DNA of 64,000 nucleotides from the NCBI GenBank assembly GCA_017519405.1, contig JAFWSH010000006.1, positions 9,284 to 73,283 of the forward strand. The letters are read 5' to 3'. The translations under genes and the position numbers were made by a program. The DNA is from Clostridia bacterium (GTDB taxonomy: Bacteria > Bacillota > Clostridia > Christensenellales > Aristaeellaceae). Below, in pieces: positions 5,936-58,977 of this stretch (position 1 is the first letter of the stretch; each line of letters begins with the position of its first letter). The notes under the pieces are model-generated. The model saw only the letters and a program-made list of their open reading frames with translations. It searched no databases and was not told the origin of the DNA.

Positions 5936-5980
5936 AAAGTATCAGGAACCTGTGGAGGTGTCAGTATTCCTTTAACAACG

Positions 5981-8020: not shown

Positions 8021-8044
8021 CCTTTACATGCGATGAATGTCAAG

Positions 8045-8080: not shown

Positions 8081-8270
8081 TTGGCAGGATATTGTAAGAG
8101 CTTCGGAAACAACAATTATCCCTAAATCAGACCAAGATTGGCAAGCAATGATTCTGTTATACAGAATGCAAATGCTTGTTGGTTGGCTCCGCCCCCAAGC
8201 CCCTGAAAGCCAGAGCATAGCTCTGTGGTTGTGAAGGCTGCCTGCGTCATCCTCCGTTTGGCTTTCGCCC

Positions 8271-9743: not shown

Positions 9744-9812
9744 GGGCACCTCCCAAAATACAAAAAGCGGCGATCTGTGTTTTGCACAAACCGCCGCCAA
9801 AGGACCTGTCGT

Positions 9813-19263: not shown

Positions 19264-19277
19264 ATCTCTTCCTCCCG

Positions 19278-23200: not shown

Positions 23201-25303
23201 TCATTTGAAAGTTGGGCGAAGAAACGGTTTTCCGTTCTCGTTGTAATCCAGGTGCAGCGTCGCGTTGTACTTGATATGGGACTTTGCGGAAACAAGGCCC
23301 TTCTTGAACACCGAGCCCTTTTCCACCAGCGCTTTCACATCGCTGGCTGTGAGCGGGTGTTCTGCGCCGGTGAGGATGCCGCCTGTTTTCCAGAGCACAA
23401 AACCGCAGATCCGGTTTTCGCACATAAAGCCTTTGGCATGATCCGTGATCGCCGCACCACACCTGGGACAGGCACAGATTTTCTGCCGCATGGGTGCAAA
23501 GAGCGCATCCGCGTTCTCCGCGCGGGTGGTATCCTTTGTCAGCTCCTGAACCCAGGCGCGAATGTCCCGCATGAAGTCCTCCGGCTTTTCTTCGCCGTTC
23601 TCGATTCGCTTCAGCCGCTGTTCCCAATCAGCCGTCAGCTGGGCTGAACAGAGCCGCGCAGGCAGCACAGCTGTCAATGCTTTGCCCTTGGCTGTCGGGA
23701 TCAGCACGCGCTTTCGCCGGTCGCCGGTGCGCTCTACCAGCTTTGTTTCCAGGAGCTTTTCCAGGATCGCTGCCCGGGTAGCCGGAGTGCCGATGCCCTT
23801 GTGCTCAGCGTCGTCCGGCATATCTTCCGCGCCGGCGGTTTCCATGGCGTGCAGGATCGTGTCCTCTGTATGATGGGCAGGCGGCGTGGTCTTGCCCTCC
23901 GCCAGTTCGGCCCGGGGCAGCGGAAGCTCATCGCCTTCCTTCCAGTCAGGAAGTTCGGTGTCCCTGGTTTCATCCTCTTCCTTGTCACGCGGAACGCGGC
24001 TGCCGATGCTGTCCCGGAATGCCTGCCAGACCTGATACCATCCCGGCTGAATCGTCTTCCTGCCTTTCAGGCGGAACTCTCTTCCGGCGCACTCCACGGT
24101 ATAGGTGGTCTCTTCCAGCACACGGGGCTGGGAGAGTGCGCAAAGCAGCCGCACACAGACAAGGTTCAGCAGATCCGCCACACAGGAAGGCAGAGCGGAA
24201 ATCGCCGCTGCCTGGTTCGGCATGGATTCTGTCGGAATGATGGCATGATGATCCGTCACCTTGCTGTCGTTGATCACACGCCCAGCTTCCGCGGTGAACT
24301 CGCTGCCGCTTGTGTACGGCAGCGTGCCGTTGACGCGGGAGGCCAGCTCCTGCAGTCCGGACTCCGCGTTGTGCGTCAGGAACCGGCTGTCAGTGCGCGG
24401 ATAAGTCAGGAGCCGCTTTTCATAGAGTGACTGTGCATACTCCAGTGTCTGCTGAGCGGTGAAACCGAAGACACGGTTTGCGTCCCGCTGCAGAGTGGTG
24501 AGGTCATAGAGTAAGGGCGGGTTCTCCGTTTTCTGTCTGCGCTCCACACGCTTGACGATGGCATTTGACTGGTTGCAGGATTCCATCAGCGAACGGGCCT
24601 CTGCCAGATCCTGAATCCGATTCGAGTGTGCCTGCTGTCCGTCGCCCAGATTCAGCTTGACGGTATAGAAGGTTTCCGGCCTGAAGTTCGCGATGCTGTC
24701 TTCCCGCTCGGTCAGCATGGCCAGCGTCGGCGTCATGACCCGCCCGATATGCAGGGTGGAGCCATAGAGCAGCGAGTACAGGCGTGTGGCGTTCATGCCG
24801 ATCAGCCAATCTGCCTGCGCCCGGCAGAGGGCAGCCTGATACAGGTTGTCATAGGCGGACATGCTTTTCAGGCTGTGAAAGCCCTCCTGAATCGCGCTCG
24901 CTTCCATGGAGGAAATCCAGAGCCTGCGCACCGGCTTCCTGCATTCCGCCATCTGATAGACCAGACGGAAGATGAGCTCACCCTCGCGCCCGGCGTCCGT
25001 GGCGCAAATGATACCGTCCACATGTTCATCCTTCATCAGGGAGGAGACAATGCCGAACTGCTTCGCGCTTTCCGGAGAAATGTTGTATTTCCACTTTTCC
25101 GGGATGATCGGAAGATCCTGATAACGCCAGTGCGCATACTCTGCCTTGTAGTCCTCCGGCATGGCCAGCTCCACCAGGTGTCCCACGCACCAGGTCACAA
25201 TCATGCCCCGTCCCTGCATATAGCCGTCCGCGTTTTCATTCACGCCAAGCACGGCGGCAATTGTTCTGCCCACGCTGGGCTTTTCCGCAATGATCAGTTC
25301 CAC
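23201..25303 (-). CDS. topB: DNA topoisomerase III (type IA)
   Basis: GGAGG 6 nt before GTG 25303 (VELIIAEKPSVGRTIAAVLG is the Toprim start). Active-site Tyr region LLTYPRTDSRFL. C-terminal zinc ribbon CPRCGAAI...CENRICGF. Confidence 0.9.
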   Translation of the reverse strand: MELIIAEKPSVGRTIAAVLGVNENADGYMQGRGMIVTWCVGHLVELAMPEDYKAEYAHWRYQDLPIIPEKWKYNISPESAKQFGIVSSLMKDEHVDGIICATDAGREGELIFRLVYQMAECRKPVRRLWISSMEASAIQEGFHSLKSMSAYDNLYQAALCRAQADWLIGMNATRLYSLLYGSTLHIGRVMTPTLAMLTEREDSIANFRPETFYTVKLNLGDGQQAHSNRIQDLAEARSLMESCNQSNAIVKRVERRQKTENPPLLYDLTTLQRDANRVFGFTAQQTLEYAQSLYEKRLLTYPRTDSRFLTHNAESGLQELASRVNGTLPYTSGSEFTAEAGRVINDSKVTDHHAIIPTESMPNQAAAISALPSCVADLLNLVCVRLLCALSQPRVLEETTYTVECAGREFRLKGRKTIQPGWYQVWQAFRDSIGSRVPRDKEEDETRDTELPDWKEGDELPLPRAELAEGKTTPPAHHTEDTILHAMETAGAEDMPDDAEHKGIGTPATRAAILEKLLETKLVERTGDRRKRVLIPTAKGKALTAVLPARLCSAQLTADWEQRLKRIENGEEKPEDFMRDIRAWVQELTKDTTRAENADALFAPMRQKICACPRCGAAITDHAKGFMCENRICGFVLWKTGGILTGAEHPLTASDVKALVEKGSVFKKGLVSAKSHIKYNATLHLDYNENGKPFLRPTFK

Positions 25304-25326
25304 AGTTTTCCTCCTGTCCGATGAAA

Positions 25327-25400
25327 CTCCGCAAAAGGTGGCTTTTTGCGGAGCGTTGTTCAATGGATACACCCCGCGGTTTGCATGTCCCGCGGGGTGT
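25327..25400 (-). terminator. Two hairpins between the DUF4366 gene and topB (terminator/attenuator candidates)
   Basis: ACACCCCGCGG (25369-25379) pairs with CCGCGGGGTGT (25390-25400). CTCCGCAAAA (25327-25336) pairs with TTTTGCGGAG (25344-25353). On the minus strand the second stem is followed by TTTCATC. T-runs are weak. Confidence 0.4.
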
Positions 25401-35874: not shown

Positions 35875-37515
35875 TTATTGTCGCTCCTGATCGTACTTTT
35901 TCTCCAGCACGGGGCTTTTCGCCACAGGCTGCTGCTCATCATCTTCCTGCGTCACCGCATCAATGGCAGCATTCATAACCTGTTCCAGCTCACGCCGGTT
36001 TTCCCGTACTTCCATCTGCTCTGAAAAGTCTTCCCGCTCCGGCAGCGCATCCGGGATCGCCTTGCGCGTCCAGTAGCGGAGCTTGCTCAGCTGATCCAGC
36101 TCTGCATGAATCTGTCCCAATTTGGGACGAAGTGATTCGTTCTGTTCTGTCAGCTCTTGCCGCTGTGCTTTCAGCTTCTTCACGCCGGCCTTGTCCAGGG
36201 GAAGGGAAACACCCAGCTTCTTCGAGAGTTTCTCGCGAAGGTAGGTTGCCTTGCGGAGCCGCTTCAGTTCATCGGCGTGTTCGGCCTGGAAGGCTTCGCG
36301 CCGGCCTTTGAAATGAATCCTGTCCAACTGATCCTGGAGAGGAGCAAGCTCTCTGTAATCCTCGATCGCTGTAAAGAAGTCATCGATATCACGAATCACT
36401 TGATTGTTGCTGCGGACATCGCCCTGCATCAGTTCAAGCTGAACCCTGGTGTTGGACAGTCGAAGCGCCAGATCTTCCACTGTAGTAATGCCGGTCTCTT
36501 TCATCAGAATGATCATCTTGGACATATCCTGCAGATCTCTGATGCCAGCCTTTTCACGTGCGTATTTACCCCAGCTCTCCCGGCCTGCTTCGCGCATGGC
36601 CCGGTAGCTGAGGATCACATCGGTCAGGGAATGAGTCTGCGGATTCTCCAGCACTTCCTGGTGGTGGATTGCTGCCATCAGTTCCGCGATCTTATCGCCC
36701 AGCTTCTTCGCTGCCCGTTTCAGAGAACCGAGAAGTCGATTGATGCTGAGAATCTCACGATTCTTTTCGCCCATCTCCGTGACGGTGCCTTTCCGCTCCA
36801 TGGCGGCTGCGGCGGGGCCGAGATGCCGTTGAGGCAGACGGTCTTCAATGCCTTGTCGCTCCAAAGAGCGCATGTCGATTCGCTCCGGCCTGCCAGCAGC
36901 TTCAAGGGCAGCGTTCTGCATCACTTCCCAGTCATGTCGCCAGATCTCGGCGTACTTGTGATCGTTCCAGTCTACAGTGTTGACGTTGCGGCGTTTCCAT
37001 TTCCCATTCTTGCCCTTGACACGGTTGCCTCGTTCATCCAGCACGTATTCCGTCCGGGTCTTATCGAGCCACTTGCCATGCTCGTCCATAGCCCGGAGAG
37101 TCAGCAGAAGATGAACATGGGGGTTGCCGTCGCCTTCGTCGTGATAGTACAGATCACAGATCATGCCTTTGCTGACAAACTCCTGCTGGCAGTAGTCCCG
37201 AATCAGCGCCAGGTTCTGCTCATACGTCAGTTCCTTCGGGAGAACAATGAGCATCCGTCGGGCCGTCTGAGCATCCTTTCTTTTCTCAGCGGCATCCACC
37301 GCATTCCAGAGTGCCTGGCTGTCAGCGTATTCCCGGGGAGCGTTGTCTGGCAGCATGACTTCCCGATAAACGACACGCTCCGGGCTGCTGTGTGGATGCT
37401 TCCATTCATGATCGCGCTCGGAGTACATTTTCTCTCCGGCGTTATAAGCTGCAGTAGCCATGACGGACTGATCTTTGCGGCCTATATACGATATGGAAAA
37501 CGTGGGACAGGGAAT
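35875..37515 (-). CDS. MobQ-type (MobA/MobL family) relaxase; first ATG at 37461 but homology starts upstream, probable ATT start at 37515
   Basis: AAYNAGEKMY (catalytic Tyr region), HDEGDGNPHVHLLLT (HxDx..NPHxH motif), long coiled-coil C-terminus. In-frame codons upstream of the ATG encode IPCPTFSISYIGRKDQSV, matching the family N-terminal strand. GGAGGTG 10 nt upstream of ATT 37513-37515. Confidence 0.8.
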   Translation of the reverse strand: MPCPTFSISYIGRKDQSVMATAAYNAGEKMYSERDHEWKHPHSSPERVVYREVMLPDNAPREYADSQALWNAVDAAEKRKDAQTARRMLIVLPKELTYEQNLALIRDYCQQEFVSKGMICDLYYHDEGDGNPHVHLLLTLRAMDEHGKWLDKTRTEYVLDERGNRVKGKNGKWKRRNVNTVDWNDHKYAEIWRHDWEVMQNAALEAAGRPERIDMRSLERQGIEDRLPQRHLGPAAAAMERKGTVTEMGEKNREILSINRLLGSLKRAAKKLGDKIAELMAAIHHQEVLENPQTHSLTDVILSYRAMREAGRESWGKYAREKAGIRDLQDMSKMIILMKETGITTVEDLALRLSNTRVQLELMQGDVRSNNQVIRDIDDFFTAIEDYRELAPLQDQLDRIHFKGRREAFQAEHADELKRLRKATYLREKLSKKLGVSLPLDKAGVKKLKAQRQELTEQNESLRPKLGQIHAELDQLSKLRYWTRKAIPDALPEREDFSEQMEVRENRRELEQVMNAAIDAVTQEDDEQQPVAKSPVLEKKYDQERQ

Positions 37516-38732: not shown

Positions 38733-38761
38733 TTGACAATGTTATAGTTTACATGTATACT
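38733..38761 (+). promoter_or_regulatory. Near-consensus sigma-70/sigma-A promoter of the peptide-rSAM-UvrA operon
   Basis: TTGACA (38733-38738), 17-nt spacer, TATACT (38756-38761). 30 nt upstream of ATG 38792. Lies in the AT-rich intergenic region. Confidence 0.7.
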
Positions 38762-38791
38762 GGCATCAACCTATAGAAGGAGGTGCAGTAC

Positions 38792-38974
38792 ATGGTCTCT
38801 TATTCTGGAGATGCGTACAATGCGCTTTACGGCAACATTACCCCCACAATGATGGCTGGTCCCCGCGAGAAGTGCATGTCTCAGTGCACTGGCTGTAAGT
38901 GCAGCTGCAGCTCTAAGTGCAAGTACACTGACAATCGCCCTGAGGTTACGGACGAAGAATGGGAGGTTCTGTAA
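38792..38974 (+). CDS. Cys-rich precursor-like peptide A (60 aa, 6 Cys)
   Basis: GAAGGAGG with 8-nt spacing to ATG 38792. MVSYSGDAYNALYGNITPTMMAGPREK-CMSQCTGCKCSCSSKCK-YTDNRPEVTDEEWEVL. Layout is leader / Cys core / acidic tail. Homologous to peptide B. Confidence 0.75.
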   Translation: MVSYSGDAYNALYGNITPTMMAGPREKCMSQCTGCKCSCSSKCKYTDNRPEVTDEEWEVL

Positions 38975-38975
38975 C

Positions 38976-39140
38976 ATGAGTGCAACCACGAACGAGTATG
39001 CCCAGATGTTCGGCAACATCTCTGATATGAGCAACATCTCCATGGCAAAGTGCGCCTGTGTGAAGTGCAACTCCTGCACTTGCGCCTGCTCCTGCTCCAG
39101 GTGCAAGCGGGCTCCTGAGAAGGAGGATATCGAATGGTAA
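38976..39140 (+). CDS. Cys-rich precursor-like peptide B (54 aa, 8 Cys; below ORF-track cut-off)
   Basis: GGGAGG (38961-38966) 9 nt before ATG 38976, 1 nt after the stop of peptide A. MSATTNEYAQMFGNISDMSNISMAK-CACVKCNSCTCACSCSRCK-RAPEKEDIEW. Its TAA (39138-39140) overlaps the rSAM ATG (ATGGTAA). Confidence 0.75.
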   Translation: MSATTNEYAQMFGNISDMSNISMAKCACVKCNSCTCACSCSRCKRAPEKEDIEW

Positions 39141-40540
39141 AGCTTTCTCGCTTTGCACATGAGTATGACCTCGGTGATGCGATAGCCCTTTATCACTCGC
39201 TGAGGATGAAACCTGTGTATTTGACGAGAAAGGCTTATGAGGACTTGCAGGTGTGGCTTGCAAGTCCTCTTTGCTCTACACCCGAAAATGCACCGGAGAA
39301 TCTGACCAACGAAGTCGCTGAACTGATAAAATGCAAGGTGCTTACCAAAACGGATGATGAAGATGATAAGGTGCTCAGGTTTATCCGCTCCAGAGCACCT
39401 GTCCCCGCTATTAGTGTCTGCTACATGATTCTAAGTGAGCAGTGCAATCTGGCCTGCAAATACTGCTTCCTCGGAAACAACGATGAAGAAAAACGGCGGC
39501 AGTTCTTGCTTGAGGATATGAGTGCTGAGACAGCAGATCAGGCAATTGATTTTTTCATCAGGCAGATGAAACTTTCTGATCTGGATTTTGAAGACGCAAA
39601 TCCGGTCGTGATTTTCTATGGCGGCGAGCCAATGGTCAATTTTCCGGTACTTGTTCACATTGCTGAAAGACTCAATGCACTCAGGAGTGTTGAGAAGTGC
39701 GTTAAGAATGTCGAGATGTCCATGGTCACGAACGGATTATTGCTGACTGAAGAACGCATTCTGAAGCTCAAGGAGCTCGGCGTCTCAATTGCTATCTCTT
39801 GCGATGGTTTTACCGATGCCGCGAACAATATGCGTGTTGATCTCGGTGGAAACCCCGTCTTTGCCCGTGTGCTTAAGACTCTAGACCTTTGCAAACGCTT
39901 GGGCGTAGACGTCGCACTCTCTGTGACACTGAGTGAGGAAACAATCAAAGACACCGTGAATATTCTGAATCTTGTAGACAATTACGGTGTCAAGTCCTTT
40001 GGGTTTAACATCTTGATGTCGAGTGATACATTCGTTCTTCCGGAAAGCTACAATGAAGCAGCAGCTCAATTCATCATTGATGAGTTTGTAGAGCTTCGGA
40101 AAAAAGGCATATACGAAGACCGTATGATGCGGAAACTCGACTCTTTCTCCAAGGCGCAGGTCTATTATTCTGACTGTGCCGCAACAGCGGGCGGACAGAT
40201 CGTTGTGGCACCTAACGGCCAGGTCGGCATCTGTCATGGATGCCTGTACGATAAAAAATACTTTGTCACTTCGATTTACGATCAATCATTTGATGCCACA
40301 AAGGATCCAACGTTTATCGAGTGGTCGCAGCTTACACCGCTGAACAAAGATTGTTGTCTCGACTGCCCGGCCCTTGGAATCTGCGGCGGAGGCTGCCCGA
40401 TCAATGCGATGCACCTAAAGCCCGGCAACACGATTCATTCCGTTGACGAGCGATTCTGCGTGCATGCCAAGAAGACGCTGGATTTCTTCATCCGTGATCT
40501 ATATCGCATCATATGCGAAAGCAGGGGTAAAAATGGCTGA
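39134..40540 (+). CDS. Radical SAM / SPASM-domain peptide-modifying enzyme with N-terminal RRE-like extension
   Basis: GAGAAGGAGGA SD. CNLACKYC (CX3CX2C). C-terminal full SPASM pattern: C-X18-C with GX4C (CAATAGGQIVVAPNGQVGIC), then CLDCPALGICGGGC (CX2CX5CX3C). About 100 aa N-terminal to the rSAM core, where RiPP-recognition elements normally sit. Confidence 0.9.
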   Translation: MVKLSRFAHEYDLGDAIALYHSLRMKPVYLTRKAYEDLQVWLASPLCSTPENAPENLTNEVAELIKCKVLTKTDDEDDKVLRFIRSRAPVPAISVCYMILSEQCNLACKYCFLGNNDEEKRRQFLLEDMSAETADQAIDFFIRQMKLSDLDFEDANPVVIFYGGEPMVNFPVLVHIAERLNALRSVEKCVKNVEMSMVTNGLLLTEERILKLKELGVSIAISCDGFTDAANNMRVDLGGNPVFARVLKTLDLCKRLGVDVALSVTLSEETIKDTVNILNLVDNYGVKSFGFNILMSSDTFVLPESYNEAAAQFIIDEFVELRKKGIYEDRMMRKLDSFSKAQVYYSDCAATAGGQIVVAPNGQVGICHGCLYDKKYFVTSIYDQSFDATKDPTFIEWSQLTPLNKDCCLDCPALGICGGGCPINAMHLKPGNTIHSVDERFCVHAKKTLDFFIRDLYRIICESRGKNG

Positions 40541-42671
40541 TGTCATTCGGGTTGAAGGAATCGAAACCAACAATCTTAGAGGCCTTGATGTTGAGCTTGA
40601 AAAAAGAGCTCTTAACCTGATTATCGGGCCATCCGGTAGTGGAAAGTCATCTTTAGCATACGATACAATTGCACAGATTGGTCAGCATGAATATATGGCC
40701 ATGTTTGCTGACGATGTTGCTGAACCCTCTTACAAGGTTAAGGGGTATCACAATATGGTTGTTGCGGTGCCGATCAGACAATCTAACAGCAACAATAATA
40801 TGCACTCAACCATTGGAACGTATTTCGGTCTTAACCGGAGTATCGCTTTCATTTTTGCGTCCATGACAGGTATCCCAGAGGAGCACTTCACATTAAACCG
40901 AGCTGCTAATCTGTGCGAAAACTGTCATGGACTTGGTTTTATCAGCGTTATTGACGAAAACAGGATTATCGATTACAGCCTTCCGATCTCACAGAATCCT
41001 TTCCGATGCTGGAATAAATTCAAAGATTTCTACCGCCAGATTCTTGTCGCTTACTGCCACGATGTAGGAATTGACCCGTCAAAAACATTCCGGCAGCTGT
41101 CGGAAAAAGAAAAGCATCTGCTTCTCTATGGTGAAGGGAAGACTAAGTACAAGTTCCTCTACAAGCGAACCAACGGAACCTCACAACGTACATCCTGCTA
41201 TTATGGCATCATGACTGGGAAAGCGATGATGCCAGATTACAGTACCGCGAGCAGGTTTTATAGCGAGAGGACTTGCCCATGTTGTGGAGGTCAGAAGTAC
41301 GGAGCTGAACAACGGCAGTACCTGTTTAACGGTCTGTCAATTGGCGACTTTATGACTATGCCCTTTGCGGAACTCATCAATTTCGTAGAGGAATCAAAGA
41401 AAAAGGTAAAGGATGTTCGTATCTCTTTTGCTTTCAATAGTCTCCACTCCTTTCTGAAAAAGGCTATTGATCTAAATCTGGGGCATCTGTTCTTCCATCG
41501 CGCAATACCGACTTTGTCTGGTGGAGAATTGCAGCGCCTGAGAATGGTGCAGGTTTTTAATGCGCAGCTTTCTGATATGCTGGTTGTCCTGGATGAACCT
41601 CTGGCAGGGTTGTCGGGACGCGAGAAGAAAGCAATCTATGAAAACATCATAGCTCTCTGTGACCGTCATACTGTTCTTGTGGTCGATCATAGCGACGTGT
41701 TTGTCAGCAAAGCCCGCAGAATCTATGCTCTTGGCCCAGGTGGCGGTTCAAAGGGCGGACAGATGATTGATGCTGCTCAATATATCCAGCAAGAGAGTCA
41801 ATCGCGCTCTTTGAGTGTGTTCAAGACTGATGCTATGCTACCAATAGAGGTATCAAGTCCTGTCTATCAATATCAAGGCACCAGAATCGCGATCATGCAG
41901 TCTGCTATGAATATGATCACCGGGCCTTCCGGGGTCGGAAAATCAACACTGCTTCGTGAGTATTTCCCGCAGGTTTTTGATGAGTACTTGTATATAAACC
42001 AGAAACCAATGATGGGAAACAAAACTTCCAGTGTTATTACAGCTCTGGATCTGTTTGGAAGAATCCAGGATCTATTTGCGAAGAAAACTGGGAAAGACCG
42101 GCGTTGGTTCTCCAACCAATCCGGCTGCGATGGAGCTTGCCCGGTTTGTGGTGGCGCCGGCTACATAGAGTACGGATACGATGCCAGGACAAAATCAATA
42201 CTGCCTTGCGAAGAGTGTGAAGGAACAGGATTCAACAAAGTTCTGAAGAAATATAAGATTGATGGCAAAACCATATTTGATATATGGAACATGACCATTG
42301 ATGAAGGTATTCAGTACTTTAGAAAGCTCGACTCCAAGATCAGTACTACCTTCGAAGAAGCATCTTCAATCCTCCTGGGGCACTTGAAGATTGGGCAACC
42401 TACTTCCACTCTTTCAGGTGGAGAAAATATCCGCATCAAGATCATGAAGGCTGCCAAATCAACAGCGAAGGTTCTCGGCATTGATGAACCGTTCAAAGGG
42501 TTAAGTCCATCTGAAATATATCTTGTCGCTTCTTTCTTTGATCGCATTCGAGCGAAAGGTAAAACGATTGTCGTTGTAGATCACTCAGAGGAAGCTGAGA
42601 GATACTTTGGACACAGGATTGTATTAGCACAGAAGGACGGCATACTAATAGAATCTCGGAGACAAATATAA
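40533..42671 (+). CDS. UvrA paralog (712 aa), class II-like: both ABC ATPase modules and Zn modules present, UvrB-binding domain absent
   Basis: ATG 40533 overlaps the rSAM stop by 8 nt. VEGIETNNLRGLDVELEKRALNLIIGPSGSGKSSLAYDT (compare UvrA ..THNLKNIDLDIPR.KL.V.TGLSGSGKSSLAFDT). FTLNRAANLCENCHGLGF and CPCCGGQKY Zn module. LSGGELQRLRM. Second Walker A ITGPSGVGKSTLL. CPVCGGAGY...CEECEGTGF. LSGGENIRIKI. The segment between LLFARVG-equivalent and FSFN-equivalent that carries Zn1 plus the UvrB-binding domain in UvrA is missing. Confidence 0.85.
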   Translation: MADVIRVEGIETNNLRGLDVELEKRALNLIIGPSGSGKSSLAYDTIAQIGQHEYMAMFADDVAEPSYKVKGYHNMVVAVPIRQSNSNNNMHSTIGTYFGLNRSIAFIFASMTGIPEEHFTLNRAANLCENCHGLGFISVIDENRIIDYSLPISQNPFRCWNKFKDFYRQILVAYCHDVGIDPSKTFRQLSEKEKHLLLYGEGKTKYKFLYKRTNGTSQRTSCYYGIMTGKAMMPDYSTASRFYSERTCPCCGGQKYGAEQRQYLFNGLSIGDFMTMPFAELINFVEESKKKVKDVRISFAFNSLHSFLKKAIDLNLGHLFFHRAIPTLSGGELQRLRMVQVFNAQLSDMLVVLDEPLAGLSGREKKAIYENIIALCDRHTVLVVDHSDVFVSKARRIYALGPGGGSKGGQMIDAAQYIQQESQSRSLSVFKTDAMLPIEVSSPVYQYQGTRIAIMQSAMNMITGPSGVGKSTLLREYFPQVFDEYLYINQKPMMGNKTSSVITALDLFGRIQDLFAKKTGKDRRWFSNQSGCDGACPVCGGAGYIEYGYDARTKSILPCEECEGTGFNKVLKKYKIDGKTIFDIWNMTIDEGIQYFRKLDSKISTTFEEASSILLGHLKIGQPTSTLSGGENIRIKIMKAAKSTAKVLGIDEPFKGLSPSEIYLVASFFDRIRAKGKTIVVVDHSEEAERYFGHRIVLAQKDGILIESRRQI

Positions 42672-42720
42672 ACGCTACATGATAGACACCGGGCGCACAT
42701 CTGTAGTTGGGGGTGACGAC

Positions 42721-45714
42721 ATGGGACGTCCAGAGGACGAGCGGGTGAAAATTCCAGCCTTGCTACATCTGACAAGGCTTGGTTATAGCTACCTCTCGCT
42801 CCAGGAATGCGAGCATGACGAGGAAACCAATATCTTCCTCTCCATATTTCGCGACTCCCTGGCACAGATCAACATGCAGCCCGTAAGCGAGGAGAAGGCT
42901 GCTGACATCATCCGAGAGATTCGGAACGCCTTGGATAATGACGATCTGGGTCGTGAGTTTTTCAAGCTCCTTCAGGCTGGCTGCAGCGGGTTGAAGCTGA
43001 TTGACTTTGAGCATCCAGATCAGAATAGTTGGCATGTGGTCACTGAGCTACCCTGCAAGAGGGATCAGGACGAATTCAGGCCTGACATCACGCTGCTGAT
43101 CAACGGATTGCCGCTGGTGTTCATCGAGGTCAAACGACCCAACAATGTAGATGGCATCCAGGCTGAACGGGATCGGATGGATCGCCGGCTGAGTAATCCA
43201 AAGTTCCGGCGGTTCATCAACATGACCCAGTTGATGATCTTCTCGAACAATGGAGAATATGATGATTCCGAGACGCCTCCGCTCTCCGGCGCTTTCTATG
43301 CGACCATCGGAAAGAAGCGACTGTTCTTCAATCATTTTCGAGAGGAACAGGAAGGCCGGTTTGCGCAGATTGCGGATTTGGATCCCACGGCGGAACGGAA
43401 GATCCTGCTGGACACACATCTCCCTGCCATCAAGCACCATGCAGAGTATCTGACCAATCTGAGCCCTACCACACCGACGCACCGCATTCTCTCTTCCATG
43501 GCCAGCAGGGATCGACTGCTGTTCTTGCTGCGCTATGGTTTGGTCTATGTTGATCGGGTGAACGATAACGGCATCACGGAGACAGAGAAGCATGTGATGC
43601 GCTACCCGCAGTTGTTCGCCACGCAGGCCATTGAGAAGCGAATCTCTGATGGCGGCCGAAAAGGTGTCATCTGGCACACCCAGGGAAGCGGTAAAACAGC
43701 ATTGGCCTACTTCAATGTCCGGTACCTGTCGGACTATTTCCAGCATCAGGGAGTGATCGCCCGGTTCTACTTCATCGTGGATCGGTTGGATCTGCTTCAG
43801 CAGGCAGCGGATGAATTCCGCGCCAGAGGACTGACGGTCAACGAAGTCAATTCCAAGGATGCTTTTGAAAAGGCTTTGACACCGGTTCGGGAGAGCAGCA
43901 CCTCCGGCGGTCTCTCCATAACCGTGGTGAATATCCAGAAGTTCTCCGATGAAGCGGTAGCTCAGCCAAGTGACTACGGCCTTCGGGTACAGCGTGTGTA
44001 CTTCATGGATGAAGCGCACCGCAGCTACAATCCTAAAGGCTCATTCCTGTCTTATTTGCAGGCTTCGGACCGGCAGGCGATATGGATTGCACTGACCGGC
44101 ACTCCGCTGATCGGTGAAGGCTATAACACCAAAGATGTCTTTGGACCCTACATTCATAAATACTACTACAATGCCTCCATCAAGGATGGCTATACCCTGC
44201 GGTTGATGCGGGAGGGTATTCGCACCGAATACCGTGTGCAGATGCAAGGCGTTCTGGAGAGCATCCGCACTCTCGAGCGCTCCATTCAACGGGAAGACCT
44301 CTATGCCCATGAGAAGTATGTTCAGCCGTTGGTGCAGTATATCGTGGAGGATTTCACACAAGCCCGCGTCAGGCTTCACGATCCCTCCATCGGCGGAATG
44401 ATCATCTGCGATTCCTCCAAGCAGGCCCGGGAGGTCTTCCGGCAGATGAAGGATCTGCCGGATCTGAAGGTCGCGCTGATCCTGCACGATGAGGATGACA
44501 TCGAAACCAGAAAGCAGGAGCGTATCGACTTCAAGAAGGGCGCTATCGATATTCTGATTGTCTTCAACATGCTACTGACGGGCTTTGACGCACCTCGGCT
44601 CAAGCGGCTGTACGTAGGCAGAGTGATCAAGGATCACAACCTGCTGCAGGCGCTTACCCGTGTTAATCGACCCTATGGACAGCATCGTTTCGGCACCGTG
44701 ATTGACTTTGCCGACATCCGGAAAGAGTTCGACAAGACCAACCAGGAATACATGCGGGAGCTGCAAACGGAGCTGGGTGATGCTTTTTCCGAGTATGACA
44801 GCATCTTCATGACCGAAGATGAAATCAGGACCGCTCTGACGGCTATTGAGGACGTACTGTTCCTCTATGACCGGGTCAACATCTCTGTCTTCACGCAGCA
44901 GATCTCTGACAATGTGGGCAAACCGGAATTGCTTCAACTGCAAAAAGCTCTGACCCAGTATCGAGAAATGGCGAATGTTGCCCGGCTGTATGGCTATGAT
45001 GCCCTTGCCTCATCGTTCACCGTGAGCAACGCTTCCGCCATGCTGACCGAGGTCACTAATCGGATCAAATTGCTGAATCAGCGCGAAACGCTGGATCAAG
45101 CCGTTGATATGCAGTCTGTGCTGAACATCGCCATGGATCAGATCCAATTTGTATTCAAGCGGATCTCCAAGGATGAAATGGTCATCGCGGACAGTTACCG
45201 GGAGATGCTGGAGCGTACCCGACAGACGATGCACAGCAATCACGACCCGGACGATCCGGAGTATGTCACACTGCTGGAAGAGCTGCAACGGCTGCTGCAG
45301 AAGAAAAAGATCGAGGAACTGACCGCCGAGGAGATGCGGGAGGATATGGCCGCCCTGGATCGCATCCGGACACAAGCTGCGGAGCTCAACCGTCGGGATG
45401 CAATGCTGACCCAGCGTTACGAGAACGATCCACGCTTTATGCGCATCCATAAGCGCCTGCGGGCCAATCCGCCGCCTATCGGGAGCGATGTGCAGATCCA
45501 TCAGGTGCTGATGCGCTTGAAGCACTCAACAGATGAGAGTGTGATGATGAACAGCGGCATTCTTCGGAACGAAGCTTATTTCACTCAGGCGCTGATGCCT
45601 CAGATCATTGACGCTCTACGTTCCAGCCATCTGCCCTTCACCCTGCCGCAGGTGCAGTTTGTGGGACAAACAATCTCCCGGGAATACTTCCGTGAAAGGA
45701 CATGGGCCAGCTGA
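42721..45714 (+). CDS. hsdR: Type I restriction enzyme R subunit
   Basis: MGRPEDERVKIPALLHLTRLGYSYLS N-terminus (alternative ATG 42679). PD-(D/E)xK-like region ITLLINGLPLVFIEVKRP. Helicase motifs VIWHTQGSGKTALA and VYFMDEAHRS. Stop overlaps the hsdM start (TGATG). Confidence 0.9.
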   Translation: MGRPEDERVKIPALLHLTRLGYSYLSLQECEHDEETNIFLSIFRDSLAQINMQPVSEEKAADIIREIRNALDNDDLGREFFKLLQAGCSGLKLIDFEHPDQNSWHVVTELPCKRDQDEFRPDITLLINGLPLVFIEVKRPNNVDGIQAERDRMDRRLSNPKFRRFINMTQLMIFSNNGEYDDSETPPLSGAFYATIGKKRLFFNHFREEQEGRFAQIADLDPTAERKILLDTHLPAIKHHAEYLTNLSPTTPTHRILSSMASRDRLLFLLRYGLVYVDRVNDNGITETEKHVMRYPQLFATQAIEKRISDGGRKGVIWHTQGSGKTALAYFNVRYLSDYFQHQGVIARFYFIVDRLDLLQQAADEFRARGLTVNEVNSKDAFEKALTPVRESSTSGGLSITVVNIQKFSDEAVAQPSDYGLRVQRVYFMDEAHRSYNPKGSFLSYLQASDRQAIWIALTGTPLIGEGYNTKDVFGPYIHKYYYNASIKDGYTLRLMREGIRTEYRVQMQGVLESIRTLERSIQREDLYAHEKYVQPLVQYIVEDFTQARVRLHDPSIGGMIICDSSKQAREVFRQMKDLPDLKVALILHDEDDIETRKQERIDFKKGAIDILIVFNMLLTGFDAPRLKRLYVGRVIKDHNLLQALTRVNRPYGQHRFGTVIDFADIRKEFDKTNQEYMRELQTELGDAFSEYDSIFMTEDEIRTALTAIEDVLFLYDRVNISVFTQQISDNVGKPELLQLQKALTQYREMANVARLYGYDALASSFTVSNASAMLTEVTNRIKLLNQRETLDQAVDMQSVLNIAMDQIQFVFKRISKDEMVIADSYREMLERTRQTMHSNHDPDDPEYVTLLEELQRLLQKKKIEELTAEEMREDMAALDRIRTQAAELNRRDAMLTQRYENDPRFMRIHKRLRANPPPIGSDVQIHQVLMRLKHSTDESVMMNSGILRNEAYFTQALMPQIIDALRSSHLPFTLPQVQFVGQTISREYFRERTWAS

Positions 45715-54490: not shown

Positions 54491-56857
54491 TCACGACGCC
54501 TTCCGCCGGCGACGGCGGCGCACCAGGCCGACGATCCCGCTGGTGACCATCACGGCGAGGCCCACCCACATGATGCCGGTAACCGCCAGGTGCACGCCAG
54601 TCTGGATCGTGGTGTAGTTGACCAGCCTCCGCATCTGTTCCGGAACGGCGTAGTACGCGTCCAGCTTGACCCTGATGACCTCTCCGGTCACGGTAAAGCC
54701 TTCCAGGGTCTCCGTTTCCCGGATCACATAGGTGCCGGGCTTCAGGCTGGTGAAGCGGACAATGCCGTCCTTGTCGGACTCCGCGGTGCCCAGCTCCTTG
54801 CCGCTCTCGTCCTCCAGACGGAACTTCACGCCGGCCAGGGGCTGACCAGAGCTGTCCGTCTTGATGAACTCGTAGTGGTCGGGAATGTTCACGCACAGAA
54901 TCGGCTTGGGCTCTGTCCAGCCGTCACCCACACGGAAACGGACGTCCTCCATGCGGCTGTAGCCCTCAGGGGCAGCCGTTTCCCGGATGATCCACTCGCC
55001 ATAGTCAAACCGGTGGAAGGTAAACACGCCGTCAGCGTCGCTGACCGCGGTTTCCACCTTTTCCATGGTGGTCGCGTTCCAGAGCGTGAACTCCACGCCC
55101 GGCAGGGGCTTGCCGGAGGGATCGGACTTGATGCACATGATCTTCTTCTCCGGGTTCACCACCGTCGCGGCGGGCTCCTCAGCGTTGGCATAGCCCTCGT
55201 CAATGCTCAGGCTGATCACCTCATGGGTCATCAGGTAACCTTCCGGAGCGGAAAGCTCCCGGATGGTGTACTTGCCATAGTCAGCGCCGATGAAGCGGGC
55301 CAGGCCTTGCGCGTCAGAGACAGCGGTCATGACCAGCCGGCCTTTGCTGTCATACAGCCCGAACTCCGCGCCCTGCAGGGGTGTGCCGTTCTGGTCGGTT
55401 TTCCGGATCAGGATCACGGACTGGACGTTCACCAGCGTGGCCACAGGCTTCTTCGGATTGACGAAGGTGCCGTCCACCGTGATGGGCACCACCGTAGCGT
55501 TCAGCAGATAGCCGGGCAGCGCTTTGGTTTCCCGGATCTCATACTGGCCATACGGAATCTTTTCAAAGACAGCCAGGCCATCCTCACCGGTGACGGCTTT
55601 CGCCTGCAGGGTACCGTCCTGCCTGAAGAGGCCGAACTCTACGCCGGCGAGAGGACGATGCTTTTCGTCCTCCTTCCGGATGCTGAACCGGGTATAGTCA
55701 TCCGCGACCGCCGTCTTTCCGACGATCTTGCCGTCCTGGCTGATGGAGAAGGACAGCTCTGTCACAGACAGCTCATAGCCCTCCGGAGCCAGGACTTCCC
55801 GGTAGGTATAGGAACCGGGCACCGCGGGGAACGCGGGCAGATAACCGTCCTCACCGGTATAGCCCTTCAGCACAATGGTTCCGTCGCTGTTTCTGATCTC
55901 GATCAGGGTGTGCGGCAGGTAATCCGATCCGGTCAGGTCGGTCTTGGAAACCCTGACTTCCGCGTGAATCAGACGGTTCAGGACAGGCTGCTCAAAGGCC
56001 AGCCGCATTTCGCCATCCTGGATCTGCGTGTCCGCCGGGAGGCTGAACACGCGGGGATTGGGATTCAGCGTCCAGCCCTCAGGGCCGGAGAGCTCCCGTA
56101 CCTCATACGTTCCCGCCGGGAAGCGGCCATAGAAGGAAACCGCGCCGTTCTTGTCCGAGATAGCAGTGGACATCAGGGAACCGGCGTTCAGGGAACCGGA
56201 CCTGCTGTTCAGCTGATCCATGCAGAAGAGGCCGAACACAAAGCCCTCGCCGGGCTCAATCGCCAGCGTGGTGGTGACCATGCCGTCCGCGTCAGTCACG
56301 GTGGACAGGACTTCCTTTTCCTTCTTCAGGCTGATCCTTGCCGGCATGAGTTCGTTGCTGGCCGCCAGGGTGACCGTGAGCACCGGCGTCTCATGATCCC
56401 GCGCATCCAGCACCACATCAAAGCGGGTGCTGTCAAAGGCATAGCCATCCGGTGCGGAGACCTCGGTCACATAGTAGTGGCCCAGGGGCAGGAGCTTGCT
56501 CTGATCCGTCTTCTCACCGGTGGTGACAATGGTATCGGCCATATCACCGGCCCTGAACCATACCGTGCCGTCCTTGCCGACGATGTCTTCCACGGCGCGC
56601 ACCTCAAACACGGCCCCTTCCAGATACCCTGTCCCGTAGATCGGCGTGTACACCAGATTCCCGAAGGGATCCTGATGCTCGTTGAAGCCCGTCAGGACAG
56701 GCCCCTGCTTCTCAATCTGGATCAGGCCCTTCACCGGCGTGTTGGTGATCGCGATTTCCGCCGTGCCCGCCTCAGCGAAGGCCATGGCGGGGATGGTGAG
56801 CAGCAGCAGGAGCAGAGCAATCAGGAGGACCGGCGTCTTGTTTTTTGTGATATACAT
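54491..56857 (-). CDS. Sortase-anchored surface protein built of Cna-B/SpaA-type (prealbumin-like fold) repeats
   Basis: Signal peptide MYITKNKTPVLLIALLLLLLTIPAMAFA. Repeated units of type G(A/V)(E/V)F.L......(V/A)......(S/T)D..G...F..(L/I).(P/Y)G.Y.(I/V)(R/T)E..AP.GY. C-terminal sorting signal TIQTG + hydrophobic VHLAVTGIMWVGLAVMVTSGIVGLV + RRRRRRK. Confidence 0.8.
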   Translation of the reverse strand: MYITKNKTPVLLIALLLLLLTIPAMAFAEAGTAEIAITNTPVKGLIQIEKQGPVLTGFNEHQDPFGNLVYTPIYGTGYLEGAVFEVRAVEDIVGKDGTVWFRAGDMADTIVTTGEKTDQSKLLPLGHYYVTEVSAPDGYAFDSTRFDVVLDARDHETPVLTVTLAASNELMPARISLKKEKEVLSTVTDADGMVTTTLAIEPGEGFVFGLFCMDQLNSRSGSLNAGSLMSTAISDKNGAVSFYGRFPAGTYEVRELSGPEGWTLNPNPRVFSLPADTQIQDGEMRLAFEQPVLNRLIHAEVRVSKTDLTGSDYLPHTLIEIRNSDGTIVLKGYTGEDGYLPAFPAVPGSYTYREVLAPEGYELSVTELSFSISQDGKIVGKTAVADDYTRFSIRKEDEKHRPLAGVEFGLFRQDGTLQAKAVTGEDGLAVFEKIPYGQYEIRETKALPGYLLNATVVPITVDGTFVNPKKPVATLVNVQSVILIRKTDQNGTPLQGAEFGLYDSKGRLVMTAVSDAQGLARFIGADYGKYTIRELSAPEGYLMTHEVISLSIDEGYANAEEPAATVVNPEKKIMCIKSDPSGKPLPGVEFTLWNATTMEKVETAVSDADGVFTFHRFDYGEWIIRETAAPEGYSRMEDVRFRVGDGWTEPKPILCVNIPDHYEFIKTDSSGQPLAGVKFRLEDESGKELGTAESDKDGIVRFTSLKPGTYVIRETETLEGFTVTGEVIRVKLDAYYAVPEQMRRLVNYTTIQTGVHLAVTGIMWVGLAVMVTSGIVGLVRRRRRRKAS

Positions 56858-56940
56858 CCGTTATACCTCATTTCTCTGTCGGCATGGAACGAAAAGGGGC
56901 AGCGGAGAAGCCCGCTGCCCGTAACGTTCCATGCGCCGGG

Positions 56941-58962
56941 TTACTTCGTGCTGCCTTCGGTGTCCATGGGAATGCGGACGCGGACCGTGTATCCCTCGTC
57001 CAGATAGTTGTCCGGGACGCTGGTCTCCACGATCTCATACTCACCCCAGGTCAGCAGCGGAGTTTCGGCGATGCCATCCTTGCCGGAGGTCAGCACCGCG
57101 ACAATCTCGCCGTTGTCATCCCCGTTGTGGGAGGGCAGGCCGGAAACGCGGGTCACGGTAAAGACCGCGCCGGGCAGGGGCATGCCTGTTTCGCTGTCGG
57201 TCTTCACAATGCGGATCTTGCCCTGAATGGGCTTGTTGGTCACAGTCCGGGTGATCGTCTCATCCATGCCCAGGGTAATGACCTCGCTCCAGAGTTCATC
57301 GGCATAGCCGGTGGGATTCTCGCGCTCCTTCACCAGGTAGGTGTTCGGGAACAGGGCAGGGGATTCAGCCATGCCGCTCTTGTCGGTGACAATGGTCACC
57401 ACCAGATCGCCGGGATTGCCGTCATCGTCAACCTCATAGATATCAAACTGAACGCCCGCGATGGGATGATCGTCCAGCTCGTCCTTCTTCAGGATCGTGA
57501 TGCGGCCAGGCGCGGGCTGGTTGATGACAGTGGCCAGCAGCTTGCTGGGGTTCACATAGGTGCCGTCGATCACGATGGACCATTCCTCATCGGAAGCGTG
57601 ATATCCGCTGGGAGCGCTCAGCTCACGGATGGTGTAGCTGCCGTAGGGGATCTTCGAGAACAGCACGATGCCGTCCGCGTCCGAAACGGCTTCCTGCACC
57701 TTATTGCCCTTCTCGTCAAAGAGGCCGAAGACCGCGCCGGGCAGCGGCTCATCGCTGTCGGTCGTCTTCATCAGCATGACCTTGTTGACTTCATTGCGGA
57801 TTTCCGTCTTGCCGGTTACCTTGCCATCCGCGCTGACGGTAAAGGTCAGAGTCTCCACGTTCAGGGCATACCCGCTGGGCGCGTAGGTTTCCTTGAACGT
57901 GTAGGTGCCGGGCACCACGGGGATGTCCGGGATCTCGCCATTGGCGTCGGTGTATTCGCGGCAGATGACCGTACCGGTCGAGTCATAGACCTCGATCAGA
58001 GCGCCGGGAAGGCTGACCTTGCCGGTGATATCCTTCTTGGTGATCGTTACGGGCGTGTAGATGAGGCGGTTCAGGATGGGCTGGGCCAGCACGACGTCAA
58101 TCACGTCCTCCTCGGAAGACATGTTGGCGGAGGTCAGCTTCACAGGATACTTGTCTGCGCTCTGCAGATAGCCCGCGGGAACAGCGAGCTCCTTGAGGTA
58201 GTAATCCCCGTGGGGATACATGCCGGAGAACACGAGAAGACCGTCAGCATCGGTCTTGCCGGTGGCCATGAGCGTTCCTGCGGGCAGCTTCTGATTGTCG
58301 CCATACGTGATGACGCTGCTGTTGTACAGGCCGAACACAAAGCCCTCGCCGGGCACTGTCTCCACCTCCTGGTGGATCATGCCTTCCTCGGTCTCCGTTC
58401 GCGTCAGCGCTTCTTTCTGCTTCCGAAGGGTTACGCGGACAGGCAGGTAGGTGTTGGAAGCGGACACCCGGATCTCCACAATGGCCGTCTTGTTGTCCAC
58501 GGCGGAGAGGGTCACGTTATAGGGCCGGCTGTCAAAGATGTATCCGTCAGGAGCGGAAATCTCCGTCAGGTAGTAGCGGCCCAGGGGCAGGATCTTGGAC
58601 TTTACCGCGCCGGTTTTGCTGGTGGTCAGCGTTTCCACGAGGTCGTCCTTTTGGTAGAAGACCGTGCCTTCCTTGCCGACGATATCCTCGGCGGCGCGCA
58701 GTTCAAAGATCGCGCCTTCCATGTACCCGTCCTGATAGACGGGCTTCATCAGGGTATTGCCGAACTCGTCTGTCTCATCGGCAAAGCGGACCAGCTGCAG
58801 GCCGGTTTTCTCCAGCACGATATCGCCCTGGACCGGCGTGTTGGTCACGTTCAGGACAATGGTCACCGGCTCGTCGTCGGCCAGGACCGTGGGCACCTGA
58901 AAGCAGGTCATCAGAATGACAAGGGCAAGGCCCAAATGCAGCATTCTCTTCATGAAATTCAT
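56941..58962 (-). CDS. Secreted Cna-B/SpaA-type repeat protein, paralog of 54491-56857 but without a sorting signal
   Basis: Signal peptide MNFMKRMLHLGLALVILMTCFQVPTVLA. N-terminal 150 aa colinear with the 788-aa protein (NTPV.G.I..EK.G..L..F.......FGN......Y..GY(L/M)EGA(V/I)FE(V/L)RA.EDIVGK(D/E)GTV). Ends ...RVRIPMDTEGSTK with no TM. Confidence 0.8.
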   Translation of the reverse strand: MNFMKRMLHLGLALVILMTCFQVPTVLADDEPVTIVLNVTNTPVQGDIVLEKTGLQLVRFADETDEFGNTLMKPVYQDGYMEGAIFELRAAEDIVGKEGTVFYQKDDLVETLTTSKTGAVKSKILPLGRYYLTEISAPDGYIFDSRPYNVTLSAVDNKTAIVEIRVSASNTYLPVRVTLRKQKEALTRTETEEGMIHQEVETVPGEGFVFGLYNSSVITYGDNQKLPAGTLMATGKTDADGLLVFSGMYPHGDYYLKELAVPAGYLQSADKYPVKLTSANMSSEEDVIDVVLAQPILNRLIYTPVTITKKDITGKVSLPGALIEVYDSTGTVICREYTDANGEIPDIPVVPGTYTFKETYAPSGYALNVETLTFTVSADGKVTGKTEIRNEVNKVMLMKTTDSDEPLPGAVFGLFDEKGNKVQEAVSDADGIVLFSKIPYGSYTIRELSAPSGYHASDEEWSIVIDGTYVNPSKLLATVINQPAPGRITILKKDELDDHPIAGVQFDIYEVDDDGNPGDLVVTIVTDKSGMAESPALFPNTYLVKERENPTGYADELWSEVITLGMDETITRTVTNKPIQGKIRIVKTDSETGMPLPGAVFTVTRVSGLPSHNGDDNGEIVAVLTSGKDGIAETPLLTWGEYEIVETSVPDNYLDEGYTVRVRIPMDTEGSTK

Positions 58963-58977
58963 GTCGTTTCCTCCCGA

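Follow-up and report, generated by a model that had tools for sequence, protein, structure and literature searches.

The genomic window analysed here, by which we mean the whole stretch of 64,000 nt, comes from a Clostridia bacterium (assembly GCA_017519405.1, contig JAFWSH010000006.1, positions 9,284-73,283 of the forward strand) and carries on its + strand a cassette of four genes, encoding two small Cys-rich peptides, a radical S-adenosylmethionine (SAM)/SPASM maturase and a UvrA-like ATPase. The cassette is preceded by a predicted sigma-70-type promoter-like site, TTGACA-17-TATACT (38733..38761), that agrees with the consensus at 11 of 12 positions and is the top-scoring site of its kind within 38.3-43.2 kb, a region in which promoter-like sites as a class are not enriched (9 observed, 7.0 +/- 3.4 in shuffled sequence). 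The first gene, pepA (precursor peptide A, 38792..38974; 60 aa, 6 Cys), begins with an ATG that has AGGAGG 8 nt upstream; the alternative GTG start at 38783, given by the lister of open reading frames (ORFs), would overlap this Shine-Dalgarno (SD) sequence. One nucleotide separates pepA from pepB (precursor peptide B, 38976..39140; 54 aa, 8 Cys; SD sequence GGGAGG), whose stop codon overlaps the start of the maturase gene (39134..40540; 468 aa, with an N-terminal domain resembling a RiPP recognition element, RRE) in ATGGTAA. The maturase stop and the ATG start of the class-II-type UvrA-like double ATP-binding cassette (ABC) ATPase (40533..42671; 712 aa) overlap in turn by 8 nt, ATGGCTGA, and the ORF lister offers an in-frame upstream alternative, TTG at 40443, for this last gene. 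An initial annotation of the same DNA had placed a promoter, two Cys-rich peptides, a radical SAM enzyme and a UvrA-like gene here, and all of them are present where it put them. Its impression that the block is AT-richer than the flanks is likewise correct, the GC content of 38-43 kb being 46-48% against 55-62% in the flanking genes of an integrative and conjugative element (ICE). That the four genes form a single functional unit, as it had argued, is borne out by their overlaps and close spacing and by the recurrence of the gene order in dozens of unrelated genomes, so that this order is not a matter of chance.

On the strength of profile matches it is close to certain that the cassette belongs to the FibroRumin family of ribosomally synthesized and post-translationally modified peptides (RiPPs). 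The maturase scores 806 bits against TIGR04136 (cut-off 400), with residues 4-460 of its 468 covered, and pepB scores 72.8 bits against TIGR04135 FibroRuminTarg, above the cut-off of 45. Homologous peptides are marked by a newer Pfam family, PF27848 FibroRuminTarg, and the annotation pipeline PGAP already gives FibroRumin names to homologues. The claim that the system as a whole is undescribed therefore fails for peptide and maturase, which form a curated family. This family is defined purely in silico, and no paper mentioning FibroRumin was found by name, by accession or by peptide core strings. The window resembles the curated family in its tandem Cys-rich peptides followed by a maturase, with pepB and the maturase above the curated cut-offs; it differs in that the family as curated comprises only peptide and maturase, without a UvrA-like partner, and in that pepA stays under the cut-off of 45, at 37.1 bits against TIGR04135. 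The undescribed parts are the constant UvrA-like partner and a wider superfamily of UvrA-like/Cys-peptide cassettes, and a literature search for links of UvrA with radical SAM, SPASM, RiPP or immunity found nothing relevant.

The association of the maturase with the ATPase is constant among close relatives. Homologues of the FibroRumin maturase number at least 1,300. A search seeded with the maturase, one genome per species, yielded 47 loci, and a UvrA-like gene lies immediately downstream in 23 of the 23 loci in which the maturase is at least 58% identical to that of the window. The downstream UvrA-like genes of these loci are 48-65% identical, with one at ~99%; in locus L014 only the first ~266 residues of the gene were detected (7400-8197), and L023 is cut by the end of its contig. 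Likewise, when the search was seeded with the UvrA-like gene, a maturase was found upstream in all 8 metagenome loci that have upstream sequence, the single-sequence scan of metagenome contigs having reached close relatives only. The maturase is likewise present at all 16 places obtained by three look-ups of family members. Homologues of the maturase are thus syntenic with Cys-rich ORFs as well as with UvrA-like genes, a point on which the initial annotation had staked its operon. Isolates that carry the cassette include Ruminococcus albus 8, Fretibacterium fastidiosum (strain SGP1), Lachnospiraceae bacterium C10, Bacillus sp. DNRA2, Coriobacteriales OH1046, [Eubacterium] yurii and Kosakonia arachidis (strain Ah-143); it is also found in metagenome-assembled genomes labelled Fibrobacter, Spirochaetes and Bacteroidales, and in full on a 36.9-kb Campylobacter plasmid, where the ATPase is annotated as 'hypothetical protein'. 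We find, then, that the UvrA-like ATPase is a constant and so far unnamed component of the cassette, and that the cassette is a self-contained, horizontally mobile module. On the plasmid, p16187MP2 of Campylobacter sp. RM16187 (L058, 4191-19220), the cassette lies divergently beside a mobilisation gene, amid duplicated RelE/ParE, HicAB, CopG and ParA modules; a MobA/MobL relaxase gene adjoins it in the window, just as a Mob gene does on the plasmid.

The ATPase itself is a UvrA without the domain for binding UvrB. Its TIGR00630 score of 335.6 bits falls short of the 729.8 cut-off, and the alignment skips from query residue 111 to profile position 261. Missing are the domain that binds UvrB and the Zn module belonging to it; the insertion (DNA-binding) domain, Zn modules 2 and 3 and both ABC modules in complete form are kept, and Pfam places UvrA_DNA-bind (PF17755) at residues 141-228. 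No variation is seen among 29 family members in the two sets of Walker A and B motifs (GPSGSGKS and G.SG.GK.T; LDEP and DEP), the two LSGGE signatures, the two H-loop His residues and the Cys of Zn2 and Zn3. A sequence search of the PDB returned UvrA of T. maritima (257 bits), Ecm16 (253 bits) and UvrA2 of D. radiodurans (197 bits). The AlphaFold2 (AF2) model of the protein (predicted local distance difference test score, pLDDT, 86) superimposes on Bst UvrA with a query-normalised TM-score of 0.83-0.85 and on Ecm16 with 0.82 when normalised to the target and 0.72-0.73 when normalised to the query (root-mean-square deviation 3.4 A). The alignment jump, the PDB search and Foldseek agree in this way with the initial annotation, which had called the protein a UvrA paralogue without the UvrB domain. 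A canonical class I UvrA of nucleotide excision repair was considered and rejected, given the score under the TIGR00630 cut-off and the absent UvrB-binding domain. In sequence and predicted model, the architecture is that of class II UvrA as defined for Ecm16 (PMC10192343). No NCBIfam model exists for the protein, and PGAP labels it variously 'hypothetical protein', 'excinuclease' or 'ATP-binding cassette domain-containing protein'.

UvrA proteins of class II have no UvrB-binding domain (PMC10192343) and confer self-resistance to DNA-binding natural products, for which both ATPase activity and the insertion domain are required (PMC10192343; PMC9328131). uvrA-like genes serve as markers for the biosynthetic gene clusters of DNA binders, and in one genome-mining study that used them to find DNA intercalators a 'RiPPs' class is named for actinobacterial clusters but not followed up (PMC10413001). 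With DrrC, Ecm16, MtrX and D. radiodurans UvrA2 the ATPase of the window shares the absence of the UvrB-binding domain with its Zn module and the retention of the insertion domain and two ABC modules, and like the self-resistance proteins it is encoded inside a biosynthetic cluster. It differs from them in that identity is only ~24-30% and it scores as near to class I proteins as to Ecm16; moreover, it goes with ribosomal Cys peptides of anaerobes and gut bacteria instead of the polyketide synthase (PKS) and non-ribosomal peptide synthetase (NRPS) intercalators of actinomycetes.

An exhaustive search with the ATPase, covering 1.84 billion representatives, indicates that this partnership extends beyond FibroRumin. 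The FibroRumin ATPases form a single cluster at 50% identity, after which the score falls from 908 to 466 bits; the nearest relatives outside it have 715-770 aa and are 33-39% identical. Nine of these were looked up. Five follow a different radical SAM/SPASM enzyme of ~430 aa that belongs to no curated family, accompanied in three of the five cassettes by a SAM methyltransferase, and the one or two peptides of each such locus have at their C-terminal end a basic core that is near-invariant, (C)QRSQCRT(T/L)(H/L)KR(K/Q)DC (L069 1520-6089; L070 3799-8211; L071 4036-8148; L075 2662-7232; L076 2713-6410). No NCBIfam model matches this type of peptide and none reaches its cut-off for the enzyme. Another relative follows a CXXX-repeat-like peptide and a PapB-like radical SAM enzyme (L085 1671-5274), and two follow a conserved Cys peptide, ..GCSGxRSDCCTRxCT..LEVNAGV(I/L)QY, with two ThiF-family enzymes (L082 2630-7226; L084 448-5114); the remaining one has no peptide cassette as neighbour. 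In a rough neighbour-joining tree, rooted on E. coli UvrA, drawn without bootstrap and leaving out DrrC and Ecm16, all relatives and the FibroRumin ATPases fall into one clade, apart from plasmid-borne class II references. Taken together, look-ups and tree imply that cassettes for the modification of small Cys peptides are generally coupled to this UvrA-like clade, and that the coupling predates FibroRumin. We found no description of it in the literature.

The precursors are of two co-conserved types, A and B, recognised across ~35 loci, each of which has a conserved leader motif, a conserved core and a conserved acidic tail with Trp. The pepB product has the leader MSAT..EYAQMFGNI, the core KCACVKCNSCTCACSC and the tail ..EKEDIEW, and conforms to the type-B consensus MsA....y...fG.I....Ma.CACvaCNSC.TCaCS..Cr..p....i.W, whose core CACvaCNSC.TCaCS..C is nearly invariant across phyla. 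The pepA product (leader ..AYNALYGNI.., core CMSQCTGCKCSC.., acidic tail ..DEEWEVL) aligns with conserved type-A peptides from 13 other loci, with the consensus aY..mlGnI...C..QCTGC.C.C.CSC...fEWE, and is the most divergent member of its type. Both cores are near-invariant from Clostridia to Kosakonia, a degree of conservation that is unusual by the standard of antimicrobial RiPPs. In four loci (L018-L021) a fused precursor lies just upstream of the maturase gene (for example 5807-6001 of L019), in which a B-type leader and core are followed by the A-type motif CISQCTGC and an A-type ELEWE tail; such a Rosetta-stone fusion implies that A and B act together. Distant homologues of the maturase (30-36% identity; from bacteria of the candidate phyla radiation, an archaeon and others) are accompanied by peptides with a G-N-I-like leader and other Cys cores, and no UvrA-like neighbour was found beside them.

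The maturase carries the radical SAM motif CNLACKYC (CX3CX2C) and the SPASM motif CLDCPALGICGGGC (CX2CX5CX3C), the Cys residues of both being invariant in 22 homologues, and matches Pfam Radical_SAM. Residues 1-90 are modelled by AF2 with a pLDDT of ~90 and have the beta-beta-beta-alpha-alpha-alpha topology of an RRE; the Pfam PqqD model gives no match to the protein. Its top Foldseek matches are structures of the thioether synthase CteB (5WHY/5WGG), over the full length (471-486 columns), followed by TigE, SuiB, anSME and ChlB. Given this predicted domain and the full-length match, the initial annotation's description of the first three genes as a RiPP cassette of the sacti- or ranthipeptide type, with an RRE-like N-terminus of the maturase, is well founded. 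The second-best NCBIfam model is PapB (129.6 bits), and the QhpD model matches residues 52-460 (107 bits, cut-off 453). The maturase is not an anaerobic sulfatase maturase, an identity that was entertained and rejected, as TIGR03942 gives 99.7 bits against a cut-off of 349.45 and no sulfatase lies in any neighbourhood. With the thioether systems SCIFF (CteA-CteB) and ranthipeptide PapA-PapB the window shares a radical SAM/SPASM enzyme with N-terminal RRE acting on a small Cys-rich precursor, yet its scores are far below the cut-offs of those families (PapB 340, SCIFF maturase 425), and it has two co-conserved peptides with acidic Trp-containing tails plus a UvrA-like partner. From these likenesses we infer that the maturase installs Cys-derived thioether-type crosslinks in the cores of A and B.

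A further conserved feature lies within the maturase ORF, ~105 nt from its start, where a scan for terminators flagged a 14-bp hairpin with a U-rich tail (39239..39269, + strand). The hairpin is kept in 17 of 20 homologous loci, at homologous positions in L002-L019 and L056. Across an alignment of 18 sequences, 95.6% of the cells are paired, compared with only 32-56% in controls slid along the sequence, and five pairs have changed on both sides (for example AU in 9 and GC in 9 sequences at pair 19-43, and GC in 10 and AU in 7 at pair 20-42), a covariation score that was reached by none of 500 shuffles. The encoded amino acids change in step with the pairs (ED..SP, ES..SS, KG..SP), which argues that selection acts on the RNA. 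The hairpin is likely to act in partial termination or attenuation, or to stabilise the 3' end of the peptide mRNA. An excess of precursor over enzyme is a common design in RiPP operons.

No neighbour of the four genes is conserved: in 19 loci with 119 flanking ORFs, even the commonest family is found just three times. The families represented include transposases, Mob_Pre (three times), NikA (twice), a relaxase, Rep-like ATPases, Barstar, Fic, AbiEi, AbiLi and metabolic genes. The 25 commonest flank families listed include none of peptidases or exporters, ABC_tran occurs once among the 119 ORFs, and no metal-homeostasis gene was found among them. The protease, exporter and immunity membrane protein whose lack the initial annotation had observed are thus not conserved at these loci either. 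Neither single sequences nor alignments of the cassette gave a match in the phage collections INPHARED and IMG/VR, and a phage origin was rejected on this ground. In PADLOC 2.0 no system-specific match was found for the cassette and none at all for the peptides; the maturase gives weak viperin matches and the ATPase ABC-type matches (mad3, 136 bits over three stretches). JetC likewise matches mad3. These generic partial matches led us to reject a known anti-phage defence system. In eight loci of one species (L048-L055, 4174-5537) an Ogt-type O6-alkylguanine-DNA methyltransferase gene adjoins the cassette on the opposite strand, with a variable insertion sequence (IS; DDE_5) between the two in some samples.

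In the window the cassette is cargo of a mobile element, as previously proposed: it lies inside a larger Gram-positive conjugative element, with genes for VirB4-like, TrbL, type IV coupling and MobA/MobL relaxase proteins upstream, and with the Type I restriction-modification (R-M) genes hsdR, hsdM and hsdS directly downstream, together with a large serine recombinase. The element has two different relaxases, one of MobA/VirD2 type (8340-9800) and one of MobA/MobL type (35875-37461), and encodes a 2408-aa SNF2/ResIII-like giant protein (12055-19281), a topoisomerase (23201-25372), a CD1107-like protein and an NlpC/P60 protein; the gene content of 8340-37461 agrees with a mobilisable unit that lies within a larger ICE or has been fused to one. 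On either side of the mobile region, at 62-8020 and 54491-61941, are genes of large surface proteins, with LRR_5/Big_2/Flg_new repeat proteins, one of them with a subtilase S8 domain, in one flank and SpaA-type pilin or adhesin genes in the opposite one. hsdR starts at ATG 42679, 8 nt past the UvrA-like stop, or at ATG 42721, 50 nt past it and with a better SD sequence; no terminator-like site was found between the two genes (42671-42721), and the GC content climbs from 0.47 to 0.54 at ~43 kb. Transcription from the promoter of the cassette may extend into the R-M genes in this element only. The initial annotation had taken the adjacency as defence-island context. The hsd genes do abut the cassette in the window; the arrangement is not conserved elsewhere and carries little weight. 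In other loci the cassette adjoins the trp operon, rpsF-ssb-rpsR, or an integrase with IS elements, and a functional tie to the Type I R-M system was rejected for this reason.

A question arises, why should a UvrA-like ATPase accompany modified Cys peptides? Our best explanation, offered tentatively and at somewhat less than an even chance, is that the cassette makes a two-peptide crosslinked RiPP that would act on DNA or on DNA-bound enzymes, with the class-II-type UvrA as its ATP-driven self-protection. This was also a hypothesis of the initial annotation, a DNA-targeting peptide with a UvrA2 for self-resistance. Transcription would start from the promoter at 38733, and the hairpin ~105 nt into the maturase gene would stop or stabilise most transcripts, leaving more peptide mRNA than enzyme mRNA. 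The RRE at the N-terminus of the maturase would bind the leader motif Y..(M/L)(F/L)GNI shared by both peptides, and the enzyme would introduce crosslinks of thioether type, derived from Cys, into the near-invariant Cys core of each. A and B, fused to one peptide in some genomes, would act jointly, the mature product binding DNA or trapping a DNA-bound enzyme. The UvrA-like ATPase, unable to recruit UvrB, could then recognise product-laden DNA and clear it with ATP, protecting the carrier of the cassette as DrrC and Ecm16 protect against intercalators. As the cassette has no exporter, the toxin might exit by host pumps or by lysis, or might stay within the cell and serve the mobile element for addiction or exclusion. 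The arguments that mainly speak for self-protection are the logic of a resistance gene and the association of one ATPase clade with four peptide chemistries, which a shared target would fit better than a shared biosynthetic step.

Among the known systems closest to the cassette is microcin B17. It is a Cys/Ser/Gly-rich ribosomal peptide that dedicated enzymes convert into a poison of DNA-bound gyrase, and it is plasmid-borne with a dedicated immunity protein that works at the DNA level. It differs from the cassette in that its azoles are made by an E1-like/YcaO/dehydrogenase trio, in that its immunity comes from the pentapeptide-repeat protein McbG together with the exporter McbEF, and in having neither a UvrA-like protein nor a radical SAM enzyme.

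Several observations weigh against a DNA-directed toxin with UvrA-type self-protection. The full-length FibroRumin peptides have net charges of -7 to +3 and are mostly acidic; only with the acidic tail taken off might they look like DNA binders of the classical kind. Pairs of peptide and maturase exist without a UvrA-like gene, as in chromosomal Campylobacter loci (a maturase ~50% identical, one B-like peptide and no ATPase) and in Desulfosporosinus sp. Tol-M (L029, 5567-13135; A, B and a 42% identical maturase, with no UvrA-like gene nearby), which is unexpected for a lethal toxin unless immunity is encoded elsewhere or the variants are harmless. No orphan copies carrying immunity only were seen. 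Ecm16 is no nearer to the UvrA-like clade than class I UvrA is, so that function is transferred over a long distance. Finally, a secreted product needs export in monoderm as well as diderm hosts, yet the cassette has no exporter. SCIFF/CteB and PapA-PapB systems, too, are often without a dedicated one. Some copies show signs of decay, namely the Campylobacter maturase of L027 (4947-6356), which is split into ORFs of 259 and 201 aa, and the UvrA-like gene of L014 with its ~266 residues. In L029 a complete Wadjet operon, jetA-jetB-jetC, follows 320 nt downstream of the FibroRumin genes, and a gene for a PbeA/Type IV restriction-like helicase lies upstream of them.

The other two hypotheses of the initial annotation, an intracellular defence or exclusion module and a system of metal- or Fe-S-binding peptides, are less probable. 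In the broader form of the former, which we think possible though we lean away from it, the cassette would be a mobile, intracellular, DNA-directed conflict module of a new kind rather than an antibiotic cluster: crosslinked A and B peptides would work with the UvrA-like scanner, or be checked by it, to exclude, addict or protect DNA on behalf of the plasmid or ICE, as one branch of a wider superfamily, so far unrecognised, in which one UvrA-like clade goes with at least four Cys-peptide chemistries. The narrower version, a DNA-surveillance, defence or exclusion module, strikes us as doubtful; here unexported A and B peptides would be subunits, cofactor-like partners or regulators of the scanner, and peptides and scanner would sense or block foreign or abnormal DNA for the mobile element or the host. 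The analogy is with QhpC/QhpD, the gamma subunit of quinohemoprotein amine dehydrogenase and its maturase, in which a radical SAM/SPASM enzyme crosslinks the Cys of a small Cys-rich polypeptide that then serves within the cell envelope as a protein subunit and not as an antibiotic, and the match of the QhpD model to residues 52-460 of our maturase is in its favour; the difference is that no dehydrogenase partner genes are present here, the partner being a DNA-binding ATPase. Such a module would also account for one cassette serving monoderm and diderm hosts with no exporter or protease in any locus, for core and tail conservation exceeding that of usual antimicrobial RiPPs and for the existence of A-B fusions; the acidic C-terminal FEWE/EEIEW tails could dock on a DNA-binding groove. 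The flanks are rich in mobile genetic elements and in toxin-antitoxin and abortive infection (Abi) genes, as seen in the ICE beside its Type I R-M system, the plasmid amid RelE/ParE, HicAB and ParA, and the UvrA-less variant directly upstream of Wadjet JetABC, and sister cassettes adjoin TIR/SEFIR, PIN and HD-CE/HATPase genes. On the other side, the cassette contains no nuclease or other effector, PADLOC knows no matching system beyond the generic ABC-type mad3 matches, and it was not found in phage collections. Several of the loci are plainly housekeeping (trp operon, rpsF-ssb-rpsR), and the sister peptides are very different from those of FibroRumin, some strongly basic, which is hard to square with one docking mode.

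That the peptides are metal or Fe-S (redox) carriers seems improbable to us. Their C-x-C and CX2CX2CX3C-like cores would bind Zn, Cu or an iron-sulfur cluster and be tailored by the radical SAM enzyme, and the UvrA-like protein would use the metallopeptide, be regulated by it or shield DNA from its chemistry. With 7-8 Cys in ~15 residues at invariant spacing the idea has some appeal, and in our reading of the motifs the B core CVACNSCTCAC fits CX2CX2CX3C and the A core CxxQCTGC fits CX3CX2C; in CteB, moreover, the auxiliary cluster of the SPASM domain contacts the substrate Cys. At such a density of Cys, however, any spacing motif may turn up at random, peptides of the sister families contain no more than 2-3 Cys, genes of metal homeostasis are absent from the neighbourhoods, and a DNA-scanning ATPase is left without a reason. 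More improbable still is that the ATPase has no business with DNA and handles the peptide instead, as chaperone or release factor for peptide or maturase or as an energiser of export with a host permease. Its translational coupling to the maturase would suit such a role, as would the company that one ATPase clade keeps with four peptide-modifying chemistries; but all DNA-related features of UvrA (insertion domain, Zn modules 2 and 3) persist without variation, the UvrA fold is kept over the whole chain, no transmembrane partner is conserved, and pairs of peptide and maturase persist without the ATPase. Mere coincidence, in which the UvrA-like gene would be independent cargo for tolerance of DNA damage or intercalators that hitch-hikes beside a RiPP pair, much as class II UvrA paralogues stand alone on many plasmids (Staphylococcus, Streptomyces, Deinococcus), is hardly credible in view of the two-way co-occurrence in all close loci of several phyla, the overlapping reading frames, the single tight cluster of UvrA-like proteins found only in cassette context, and the ties of their nearest relatives to peptide cassettes.

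The covarying hairpin in the maturase ORF is a clean case of an RNA regulatory element embedded in coding sequence. The constant UvrA-like partner gives FibroRumin, an orphan family of the databases, its first testable functional hypothesis, namely that its product acts at the level of DNA. If this is true, FibroRumin would be, to our knowledge, the first RiPP class with UvrA-type self-protection, and the use of uvrA-like genes as markers of DNA binders would extend from the PKS/NRPS clusters of actinomycetes to ribosomal peptides. The hosts are anaerobes of gut, rumen and mouth, among which the cassette moves between phyla on ICEs and plasmids. One UvrA-like clade with four Cys-peptide cassettes amounts to a set of small, expressible clusters of 3-5 genes, useful for finding DNA-directed peptides or a new conflict system borne by mobile elements.

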